Notes under the pieces: generated by a model | Databases searched by the model: none | The model's input: the letters and a program-made list of their open reading frames with translations, nothing else | What the model was told of the DNA's origin: nothing | In this document: positions 61,096 through 64,000 of the stretch, one piece after another | Layout of the letters: each line of letters begins with the position of its first letter | How positions within the stretch are numbered: position 1 is the first letter of the stretch | From: Candidatus Parcubacteria bacterium | Lineage (GTDB): Bacteria > Patescibacteriota > Minisyncoccia > Phycocordibacterales > Zambryskibacteraceae | DNA: 64,000 nt | Direction: 5' to 3' | Assembly: GCA_019661865.1 (NCBI GenBank) | Contig: JAIFWJ010000001.1 | Coordinates: 110,809 to 174,808, forward strand | Program-made: the position numbers and the translations under genes

Positions 61096-61650
61096 ATGCC
61101 CAACCCAGAAATAGTCCAGAAAGACGCGGCAGTCTTACGTGAGATGGCACACCCTGTCGAGGTTAAAGAAATAACTTCTAAGAAAATTCAGAGTGTCCTC
61201 TCACGGATGAAGAAGGCCCTGAAGTCCCAAGATGATGGGGTAGCTATTGCTGCACCACAGATAAGCGAGAGTTTACGCATTTTTATAGTTAGCGGTAGAA
61301 CTCTTCTTCTTATGCGGAAGGACGAGTCCACTCCGAAAGAATTGGAAAATGCTCCGGAAGATTTAGTATTTATAAATCCCACCATAACTAAACTCTCCAA
61401 GAAGAAACTTATGATGGAGGAAGGATGCCTCTCTATCCGTTGGCTGTACGGACATGTTGAGAGAAGTGAGAAGGCCACCATTACAGCCTATGATGAGAAT
61501 GGTAAGAAGTTCCAGAAAGGAGCTTCGGGCCTTATGGCTCAGATCTTCCAACATGAGGTAGATCACTTAAATGGTATTCTATTTATAGATAAGGCAGAAG
61601 GCTTACACGAACTTCCTCCAGAAGAAACCCATAATAAGATTAGTGAATAA
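61096..61650 (+). CDS. def: Peptide deformylase
   Basis: GVAIAAPQ, EGCLS, QHEVDHL-G. Confidence 0.96.
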   Translation: MPNPEIVQKDAAVLREMAHPVEVKEITSKKIQSVLSRMKKALKSQDDGVAIAAPQISESLRIFIVSGRTLLLMRKDESTPKELENAPEDLVFINPTITKLSKKKLMMEEGCLSIRWLYGHVERSEKATITAYDENGKKFQKGASGLMAQIFQHEVDHLNGILFIDKAEGLHELPPEETHNKISE

Positions 61651-61652
61651 CA

Positions 61653-62390
61653 GTGTCGATCAAATTTGTATATTTCGGTTCCTCACAATTCTCTAAATAT
61701 GTTTTAGAGGAGTTAGAGAAGGAAGGACTTACCCCTGTTCTTAATATTACTTCAGCTCAGGAACCATTAGATATAAAGAAGCTGCAAGAAGCAAAAGCAG
61801 ATGTATTTATCGTGGCATCATTCGGGAAAATTTTACCCAAAGAAGTAATTTATATGCCGCCTTATAAGACTCTCAATGTCCATCCGTCACGACTGCCCAG
61901 ACTTCGAGGTCCTTCCCCCATACAATCTTCCATAATTAGTGAACCAGAACCGCATTTAACCATTATGAGAATGGACGAAGAGATGGATACAGGTCCTGTG
62001 GTAGTCACAACCACTCAATTCATTACCCCCTGGCCAGATTATTATTCGATAATTGAAGAGAAGCTTGGACATAGTGGAGGACAAGTCCTAGCTCAGATTC
62101 TTCCCCTATGGATAGATGGAAAGATAGATGAAGTTCCCCAAGATAATTCAAAAGCCACTTATACAAAGAAAATAAAAAAAGAGGATGCGGATATTACAAA
62201 CGACTCGCCAGAGCTAGCATTACGAAAGATCATGGCCTATGAGACTTGGCCCAGAGCACGTAAGGGAGATTTGATAATAACCAAAGCACATTTAGAGAGT
62301 GGAGAACTCGTTTTAGACAAAGTCATCCCTCCCGGTAAGAAAGAGATGAGTTACAAGGACTACGAAAACGGTTTGAAAGGAAAAAGATAA
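61653..62390 (+). CDS. fmt: Methionyl-tRNA formyltransferase (compact)
   Basis: NVHPS-LP-RGPSPI, MD-MDTG, ATY-KI-KED. Confidence 0.93.
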   Translation: MSIKFVYFGSSQFSKYVLEELEKEGLTPVLNITSAQEPLDIKKLQEAKADVFIVASFGKILPKEVIYMPPYKTLNVHPSRLPRLRGPSPIQSSIISEPEPHLTIMRMDEEMDTGPVVVTTTQFITPWPDYYSIIEEKLGHSGGQVLAQILPLWIDGKIDEVPQDNSKATYTKKIKKEDADITNDSPELALRKIMAYETWPRARKGDLIITKAHLESGELVLDKVIPPGKKEMSYKDYENGLKGKR

Positions 62391-62404
62391 ACAAATAGAA
62401 ATAA

Positions 62405-62683
62405 AGAGAAAGCGCCCAACCGAAGTTGAGCGCTTATTTATGGATACAGTGACCGAAGTCACGGAAAGAACTTCTTCAGCCGGACAGAGCCCGCTTGGGA
62501 TGTCCGGCCGCGCCTTTTAAGTCGCTTCCAAGACCGGCGAACCAAGGAAGTCTATCCTCCTTTATATTGCTGTCACCGAATGCTAGGCGGAGGCCTCTTT
62601 ATACCATTGCAATCGGGCCGATTTAACAGATACGGGCCCGTACCTGTTAGAGCGGAAAACGGCATTTCAAACAAACCACTCTA
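62405..62683 (-). ncRNA. Candidate structured RNA (or structured mRNA for a 28-aa peptide)
   Basis: TTGACA-N16-TATAAT promoter at 62716-62689; many GC-rich stems, two UUCG loops, terminator 62411-62434. Confidence 0.55.
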
Positions 62684-62749
62684 TGTATATTATACACCCC
62701 CATCTGCTTTTGTCAAGCAGAGATTGATATTAAAGCTTAGGCTGGAGAA

Positions 62750-62932
62750 TTATGGCTTAGTATAGCGCTGAACTTGAGAAACTGTGGGAGCGAAGTCCAC
62801 AAATGCATCCAGCTTGCTCTCGATGCGCACAAGCATAAAGAGGATAAGTCCGCTTACCAATCCACCCATAAGCACCGCACCTGATACAAAGGGATTAGCT
62901 GTCTGTCTCCAATAATTTTGCCAATAATTCAT
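62750..62932 (-). CDS. Small single-TM protein
   Basis: 60 aa with one hydrophobic helix, downstream of hpf. Confidence 0.55.
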   Translation of the reverse strand: MNYWQNYWRQTANPFVSGAVLMGGLVSGLILFMLVRIESKLDAFVDFAPTVSQVQRYTKP

Positions 62933-62944
62933 GTCTTATGTTAT

Positions 62945-63358
62945 TTATATTGTATCAATGTCTTCACCGCGGCGAAATCTCTTGGGCAATCTCACCCACG
63001 GGAAACCCCGCACAATATCCTTCACCATCCTTCCGCCCTTACGCATCATGTGGAGACGTTTGGACTTGTCTCTGGTGATCTCTTGTACTACTTCATCGCG
63101 CACCATGTCTATGGCAGCATACAAGTCCTCTGCTTCACATACAGCATAGACATCTTTACCAAGACCGACTATCTTCACTTCCGCTCTAAAGAAAGGTCCT
63201 TCCTTATGATGCTTAGTGTTCTTCCCCACCTCCATCTGCACAACTGGAGATTTACCCTTTTCAATGTACTTTTCTATGGAAGAAATTTTCTTTTCTGCAT
63301 ATGAAGAAATAGCGGGTGTCATCTCGATACCCGTGGCTTTAATATTTATATTCATCAT
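62945..63358 (-). CDS. hpf: Ribosome hibernation promoting factor / RaiA
   Basis: T-AI-Y-KKI, F-AE, DLYAAID. Confidence 0.9.
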   Translation of the reverse strand: MMNINIKATGIEMTPAISSYAEKKISSIEKYIEKGKSPVVQMEVGKNTKHHKEGPFFRAEVKIVGLGKDVYAVCEAEDLYAAIDMVRDEVVQEITRDKSKRLHMMRKGGRMVKDIVRGFPWVRLPKRFRRGEDIDTI

Positions 63359-63376
63359 GGAATTTATTATATCAAC

Positions 63377-63547
63377 TTAGCTTTCAGCATGCTCCCTCTT
63401 CTGATCTGCCTCCTTCTGCGAAGCATCTGCGGCATCACGCTCGGCATCCGCCTTCCTTTGAGCAGCGTCGGCTTGCGCTTTCTCGGCTTCAGACTCATCA
63501 TCCTCAGCCTCCTTGGCTCTGTTCTCTGCATCTTCTTTTTCTCCCAT
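63377..63547 (-). CDS. Small acidic Ala-rich hydrophilic protein
   Basis: Not in ORF track: MGEKEDAENRAKEAEDDESEAEKAQADAAQRKADAERDAADASQKEADQKREHAES; TAATTT 6 nt before ATG. Confidence 0.65.
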   Translation of the reverse strand: MGEKEDAENRAKEAEDDESEAEKAQADAAQRKADAERDAADASQKEADQKREHAES

Positions 63548-63609
63548 AATAGTAAATTAGCTACTAACACAATGTTAGACGTAGATAGAAGAACAATGAT
63601 TACAAGCAA

Positions 63610-63774
63610 CTAAGCGGAAAGTTTAAATCCGAGCCATATACCAAGGATGGAGAAAACAGCTTGTGAGACTACACCAGAAAATGAGAAATAGTCCGCACCC
63701 CAGAGGTTCGGGACCAATCCGCCAATGAAAGATCCGATGAAGAGCCCTCCCCAGATGGCAGACTTACGACTCAT
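63610..63774 (-). CDS. Small 2-TM Gly-rich membrane protein
   Basis: Not in ORF track: MSRKSAIWGGLFIGSFIGGLVPNLWGADYFSFSGVVSQAVFSILGIWLGFKLSA. Confidence 0.7.
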   Translation of the reverse strand: MSRKSAIWGGLFIGSFIGGLVPNLWGADYFSFSGVVSQAVFSILGIWLGFKLSA

Positions 63775-63786
63775 TAAATTAGAAAA

Positions 63787-63975
63787 TTATTTCTTCTTGA
63801 GAAGAGCTGTATAGGCGAGATACCCTGCGACGATAACTGCTGCCCAACTGAGCCAAGTAGGTACCATATATGTACCGAACTTCACAGTAAGACCATTGAT
63901 CAGTCTCCAGAGATGAAGAACTGCAACTAATAAGAAAATAAAACCAGAAACCTTGTAGTAATTGTGTGTGTTCAT
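63787..63975 (-). CDS. Small 2-TM membrane protein
   Basis: IF-LVAVLH-WR, P-W-SW pattern. Confidence 0.7.
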   Translation of the reverse strand: MNTHNYYKVSGFIFLLVAVLHLWRLINGLTVKFGTYMVPTWLSWAAVIVAGYLAYTALLKKK

Positions 63976-64000
63976 TTAAATTTTAAAAGCTAGTACATAT

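Follow-up and report, generated by a model that had tools for sequence, protein, structure and literature searches.

The window, that is, the whole 64,000-nucleotide stretch of DNA analysed, very probably contains a genuine non-coding RNA gene between hpf and fmt, and its product is predicted to be a stable, strongly transcribed non-coding RNA. Related units form a family-restricted set, 20 in 19 of 86 family genomes plus one from a metagenome (L081), and occupy nine loci. We tentatively propose that the RNA may be an abundant decoy for the NusB-S10 pair; its conserved working part would be a GYUCUUU site near the 3' end, predicted to bind this pair. Here a 0.6-Mb genome gives one of its best promoters to an RNA without a curated family, and relatives keep the RNA slot and replace its content.

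The genome that carries the RNA (G000) is 599 kb long and 97% complete, and it combines small size with a NusB-Nudix fusion and a 16S rRNA without anti-SD; these traits and the lack of SRP54 and Rho domains fit a bacterium of Parcubacteria type. As a sequence-only reading of this DNA had said, the RNA lies on the same strand as hpf and on its 3' side, but it does not adjoin hpf, as a 60-codon gene (62932-62750) with relatives in L081, G001 and G014 intervenes. The near-consensus promoter named in that reading, TTGACA(62716)-16-TATAAT(62689), agrees with sigma-70 at every scored position and ranks first among the 11 promoter-like sites of 61500-64000; transcription would start near 62682. An inverted repeat centred on the -35 box (62703-62721) was scored as a plus-strand terminator, and it could additionally end the hpf transcript. 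Upstream of hpf lies a 56-codon acidic ORF rich in Ala, Glu and Lys (63377-63547, minus strand), and similar ORFs precede hpf in several relatives. The tmRNA and RNase P genes of G000 sit elsewhere in the genome. A tRNA-like gene with a TTA anticodon (G000:C4:54619-54692) was called 'Stop' by ARAGORN.

Table 1 Features of the RNA locus and its neighbouring genes (positions in the window).
Feature	Position	Strand	Remarks
hpf (ribosome hibernation factor)	62945..63358	-	genomic context
Membrane-type ORF, 60 codons	62750..62932	-	between hpf and the RNA
Sigma-70 promoter TTGACA-16-TATAAT	62689..62716	-	12/12 match; similar promoters ahead of relatives' units
Weak 5' stem GAGUGG/CCGCUC, 20-nt loop	62650..62681	-	in MFE and centroid folds; pair probability < 0.5
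11-bp hairpin, self-complementary tip (12-nt perfect palindrome)	62624..62649	-	mean pair probability 0.95
Core helix CCGAUUG (62616-62610)/CAUUCGG (62582-62576), then UGA	62576..62616	-	formable in G017 and G001 too
Hairpin AAGGAGG/CUUCCUU holding GGAGG	62544..62562	-	pair probability 0.92; not a ribosome-binding site in G000
28-codon TTG frame	62459..62545	-	judged not a gene
13-bp hairpin, GGCCGGACA stem	62477..62510	-	pair probability 0.99; ends 5 nt ahead of the motif
boxA-core-like motif GUUCUUUC	62464..62471	-	common to 15 units; PMC3177189
GUGAC-UUCG-GUCAC hairpin	62449..62462	-	all 5 pairs with two-sided changes across members
Intrinsic terminator, 11-bp stem 62435-62410 and U-rich tail	62402..62435	-	predicted
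fmt	61653..62390	+	convergent with the RNA

Folding of the 285-nt strand gives -102.1 kcal/mol (z -2.93), a stability reached by 1 of 200 shuffles, and pair probability exceeds 0.5 for four helices: 62649-62624, 62562-62544, 62510-62477 and the terminator. The long stem, the GGCCGGACA stem and the terminator had all been proposed from the letters, and each was recovered at its place. The proposed 5' stem appears in the MFE and centroid folds but did not reach P>0.5 in the pair-probability analysis; GUGAC-UUCG-GUCAC, present in the centroid, did not reach this value either, and it covaries across members. An AAUCG-GCC-CGAUU hairpin is formable as suggested, but it competes within 1 kcal/mol with the helix CCGAUUG/CAUUCGG, which two homologues also form. 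This core helix has 18 of 21 cells paired across G000, G017 and G001, with 2 two-sided changes, and its covariation over these three sequences is not significant (100 of 500 shuffles). The supposed pairing of CCUCC (62593) with GGAGG (62560) failed: both words are present, their pairing probability is 0.000, and GGAGG pairs within its own hairpin instead.

None of the Rfam 15 covariance models, among them raiA, tmRNA, RNase P, SRP, 6S and the ribozymes, matched the RNA at gathering score; one snoRNA match had E=3.9. This agrees with the earlier remark that hallmarks of tmRNA, RNase P, SRP and raiA are missing, and together with the promoter-to-terminator units in relatives and the covarying 3' module it upholds the suggestion of a new class of non-coding RNA. 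Likeness to a group I intron or a hammerhead found no Rfam support. A kissing or dimer model was not convincing either, with palindromes of at least 10 nt in 8 of 21 bodies against 4.9 expected, and an antisense role towards fmt or dnaA was rejected, the 12-nt dnaA match sitting among 106 chance-level 11-mers. Elsewhere in G000, outside the window, a second RNA of the stand-alone, folded kind was seen at C3:53414-53690; it lacks the GYUCUUUC module.

Under the other proposal of the sequence-only reading, the RNA is a translationally locked mRNA that encodes a basic peptide, 28 residues long; we now regard this as extremely improbable. A base-paired GGAGG does stand 9 nt before the TTG, and GGAG with TTG recurs at the aligned place in G017. 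Against this, the 16S 3' end of G000 has no CCUCC anti-SD, the CCUCC:GGAGG lock has no probability, and the aligned G017 frame, 8 codons in all, is broken after codon 6. An SD-like word precedes 34 of 342 ORFs of at least 200 codons in G000; for Parcubacteria as a whole, the available part of PMC9297842 reports the anti-SD motif in only 48%. No reading frame shared across the unit members was found, the 28-codon peptide had no match in Pfam and NCBIfam, and no antitoxin partner was seen. Production of a small protein from the TTG frame is very unlikely.

The units in relatives were found at hpf|fmt, at tatD (with rpsF next in two), between rplE and rpsN, before gmk/prfA, before tuf, and beside recG, greA, mltG and one unnamed gene, the neighbour names being assigned by eye from translations. 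Nearly all genomes carrying units have one unit each. Only 6 of about 21 units lie near hpf, L081 being the sixth at hpf|fmt; among 20 genus genomes this junction holds a unit in 5, another insert in 3 and a small ORF only in 2, and is empty in 10. BLAST over 61 genomes gave matches mainly at the 3' end of the RNA. A 77-position model of the 3' module, which contained no promoter, gave 25 matches in 23 of the 86 family genomes. Twenty of them lay outside the training set: 14 were promoter-to-terminator non-coding units (10 recognized by pattern, 3 by eye and 1 cut by a contig end), 5 were plain terminators and 1 was ambiguous, and the 10 best-scoring of these matches were all promoter-to-terminator units. 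Furthermore, a body-only model found the G001 unit, which carries GCUCUUUC and a terminator, both absent from the matched part of the model.

Beyond the family, a strict module pattern over 401 order genomes matched in G000 alone. The 3'-module model over 151 order genomes returned mostly ordinary terminators, and only G052 was convincing among 29 loci inspected. The metagenome scan gave at least 120 matches, with 1 true unit (L081) among the matches listed, and 3 of 10 matches in a scan of a genome collection were units of this kind; the viral contigs, phages and plasmids scanned contained no such unit. G018 is an unpublished genome that supplies a single motif-less unit and a single tree tip; none of the conclusions rests on it.

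The unit bodies, 110-480 nt long, are mostly unalignable to each other, and their folds are more stable than those of shuffled versions (z -1.4 to -7.9 from 25 shuffles per body). Clear matches among 782 pairwise body comparisons were those within the G008/G019/G021 clade, G000-G017 (z 7.8), G005-G014 (6.9) and G022-G029 (5.8). G001 matches G017 at z 12.7 and G000 at only 0.4, so the link between the G000 and G001 bodies runs via G017, their direct alignment not being significant. Matching body pairs occupy different loci. Conversely, the sisters G005 and G011 (support 100) have a near-identical promoter at the same site and unalignable bodies; the deep nodes of the genus tree are weak (support 16-51). 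From these comparisons, the body of the unit is replaced between relatives, with the slot kept. A length periodicity near 110 nt was rejected (p=1.0). Among individual bodies, those of L022 and L005 (G005, G014), related and at different loci, show by eye what looks like a 5' pseudoknot together with a bulged helix. L182, L180 and L185 (G019, G021, G008) hold a conserved structured RNA of ~400 nt with its own promoter and terminator that breaks up the spc operon, lying between rplE and rpsN. In L202 (G007), a stand-alone rod-shaped RNA of about 165 nt and 6S-like shape lies after 1530, with a GGGGCCCGGA hairpin in common with the G030 spacer insert.

GYUCUUUC stands near the 3' end of 15 units, 59-81 nt from that end. 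In 13 of them a 5-bp hairpin starts no more than 2 nt further on; in G009 and G001 this hairpin is degenerate or displaced. GCUCUUU and GUUCUUU are the top 7-mers among 19 units (16 of 19 versus 0.8), partly by selection. The small hairpin and terminator show two-sided changes at 11 of 12 pairs, a result equalled by 0 of 500 shuffles; across an alignment of 20 3' modules each of the 5 hairpin pairs has such changes, again with 0 of 500 shuffles matching, in an alignment fitted to the very structure whose covariation was scored. A strong hairpin ends at most 7 nt upstream of the motif in 12 of 15 units and 17 of 30 rRNA leaders (controls: background 0.19, within-body 0.52). The mean unpaired probability of the motif is 0.42 in G000 and 0.17-0.80 across 14 units. 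We found no cis pairing partner of the motif better than shuffles, and pairing to 23S (PTC) or 5S loop E was rejected, there being no matching variation. In G017 (15 of 16 nt) and in a G443 tandem the motif is directly repeated.

The heptamer equals the E. coli boxA core as quoted in PMC13753749. According to the available part of PMC3177189, NusB-S10 reads 8 nt, with G2, C5, U6 and U8 decisive and positions beyond 8 not read, and a double-stranded RNA site adjoins the 5' end of boxA. G2, C5, a pyrimidine at 6 and U8 are all present at 62472-62465, and the unit site differs from E. coli boxA positions 1-8 at 1 and 3 only. The A-rich 3' half of boxA found in E. coli, B. subtilis and the family leaders is largely missing from the units. 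G000 encodes NusB with the base-stacking Phe and the RNA-binding helix intact, fused to a Nudix domain and directly upstream of the RNase III gene rnc (G000:C7, L293:1483-2409). Co-occurrence is uninformative here, since NusB is present in 62 of 62 near-complete genomes. That the motif is read by NusB-S10 seems to us close to an even call, on the doubtful side.

The motif also recurs beside rRNA. We read 30 family 23S-5S spacers (L294-L323; 32 genomes had a 5S match). Of these, 23 are enlarged and contain between one and five tRNA-like genes inside long base-paired stems, many with irregular anticodon loops or arms, and other folded inserts alongside. GYUCUUU occurs in 15 of the 23 long spacers (shuffle mean 3.3, maximum 9; reverse strand 3) and in 0 of 7 short ones, an enrichment independent of the way the units were found. 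G052, outside the family, has the motif and a UUCG hairpin between 23S and 5S. The spacer of G000 is short. A strictly complementary distribution of spacer and unit motif was rejected, as G022 and G440 have both and G004 and G007 neither. The second folded RNA, at C3:53414-53690, weakly resembles the insert in the G022 spacer (z 3.9). The rRNA genes of G000 are unlinked (C5, C4, C2): about 9 kb separate 23S-5S from the 16S gene downstream, and the two have separate promoters and boxA-like sites; both leader sites deviate from E. coli at positions 4 and 6, and 19 of 30 family leaders have A at E. coli position 4. Known rrn boxA sites are placed in the leader and before 23S only in the available part of PMC10250234. 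Neither units (5 of 19 versus 4.2) nor spacers (9 of 23 versus 10.8) show an enrichment of leader-type boxA variants, so another reader of the motif is possible. In literature covered without most subscription journals and supplements, we found no description of these RNAs, of a NusB-titrating RNA or of such spacers; a member of the unit set could be listed in the motif tables of RNA-discovery papers.

The genes downstream of the units vary in identity and direction, which favours action in trans. With boxA at the transcript end, no Rho domain found in G000 (97% complete) and inconsistent downstream genes, classical antitermination is ruled out, and from this we infer binding in trans as a decoy. 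Such a decoy would draw NusB-S10 off the weaker rRNA leader sites by competition, and the variable body would mainly provide a stable fold to carry the motif, open to duplication, exchange and transfer between loci. Several findings count against a decoy: about 67 of 86 family genomes yielded no unit; six units with hairpin and terminator (G005, G008, G014, G018, G019, G021) lack the motif; the motif is predicted to be more single-stranded than the body average in 9 of 14 units only; and the bodies are elaborate, with two-sided changes within subfamilies, which is more than a decoy needs. The leader sites of the family also count against it, their consensus being looser on the 5' side and stricter on the 3' side: A10 and A12 are present in 30 of 30 family leaders and each in 1 of 14 units, a partly circular comparison since both boxA sets were picked by self-written patterns. 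The main rival, which we rate as unlikely, takes the motif as a nuclease entry or maturation site, an RNase Y-like cut after G set by the downstream hairpin, which trims stable RNAs and spacer inserts while each body has its own function. Genes for both RNase Y and RNase III are present in G000, the motif is flanked by a helix on either side and tags spacer inserts needing excision, and RNase Y is described as preferring a cut after G with structure a few nt downstream (PMC11321564, available part). However, the B. subtilis RNase Y consensus in the accessible part of bioRxiv 2023.03.12.532304 is weak and GA-centred, unlike the invariant heptamer, and none of the 43 tRNA genes of G000 has the motif nearby.

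Mobile or near-neutral passengers, with the motif as a recombination core for insertion or exchange of bodies, would fit the scattering of the hpf|fmt unit over the tree (5 of 20 genus genomes), the shared promoter and unalignable bodies of G005 and G011, related bodies at different loci, and the direct repeats in G017 and G443. We nevertheless consider this improbable: units are nearly always single, no reverse transcriptase or TnpB domain was found in G000, the scanned viral contigs, phages and plasmids had none, and two-sided changes indicate selection on RNA structure. A nut-like site in cis that loads Nus factors for read-through of the terminator into the next genes has in its favour the boxA-like word and 5-bp hairpin just before the terminator and the position of several units ahead of rpsF, tuf, gmk or prfA in the same orientation; since read-through would be antisense at hpf|fmt (G000 included), recG and greA, and the spc-operon units lack the motif, it appears quite improbable. 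Neither 6S RNA nor SRP RNA was found in the G000 genome, each genome mostly has one unit, and the promoter is strong, so the RNA could be a highly diverged 6S or SRP RNA that fills this gap; yet the fold has no long rod with a central bubble, no SRP54 domain was found in G000, sizes range over 180-550 nt and bodies are unalignable, which makes this highly improbable.

Alongside the decoy we considered a broader scheme, improbable as it stands, in which unrelated folded RNAs and tRNA look-alikes would be swapped between stand-alone units and the 23S-5S spacer as contents of a modular slot, boxA-tagged to recruit the NusB-Nudix fusion, which would handle 5' ends or be titrated. If true, NusB would do a job other than antitermination in a cell that lacks Rho, and a parasitic bacterium would possess a rapidly evolving arsenal of RNAs. 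If the signal is a NusB-S10 site, it bears on the role of NusB/boxA where Rho is dispensable or absent, named as an open question in the available part of PMC13753749. The motif would then also be an inexpensive substrate to try first on the unstudied NusB-Nudix fusion. Its occurrence in expanded 23S-5S spacers that hold odd tRNA-like genes suggests that the lineage has more kinds of RNA than have been described.

Omega, retron and DGR RNAs are not a match, no TnpB or reverse transcriptase being found beside the RNA or in G000 (97% complete). Type I toxin mRNAs are folded transcripts with a paired GGAGG before a short frame, and the RNA resembles them in this arrangement; it differs in a host without anti-SD, a frame that is not conserved, a peptide that is not hydrophobic and the lack of a visible antisense partner. 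The raiA motif RNA is a structured RNA upstream of raiA/hpf genes. It is likewise a few hundred nt long and near hpf, whereas the present RNA is downstream of hpf, without Rfam match or conserved body. The domain IV motif and Ffh partner of SRP RNA were not seen, nor the rod of about 180 nt of 6S RNA. CsrB and 6S RNA are protein-titrating small RNAs. The units are like them in a strong promoter and terminator of their own, the absence of a frame and the proposed binding of a regulator in trans, but have one site rather than many, another proposed target, bodies unrelated between sister species and no Rfam match. Compared with rrn and lambda nut boxA (PDB 3R2C), the unit motif is a 3'-terminal element of a small stand-alone RNA, shortly ahead of the terminator, so the classical role of a 5' boxA protecting a long transcript does not fit; A-rich positions 10 and 12 and a spacer before the downstream hairpin are missing, and the host has no detectable Rho. 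The unit motif nonetheless has positions 2 and 4-8 of the 8-nt core in common with these sites, a hairpin immediately upstream as in rrn leaders, and a 5-bp hairpin downstream like lambda nut boxB.
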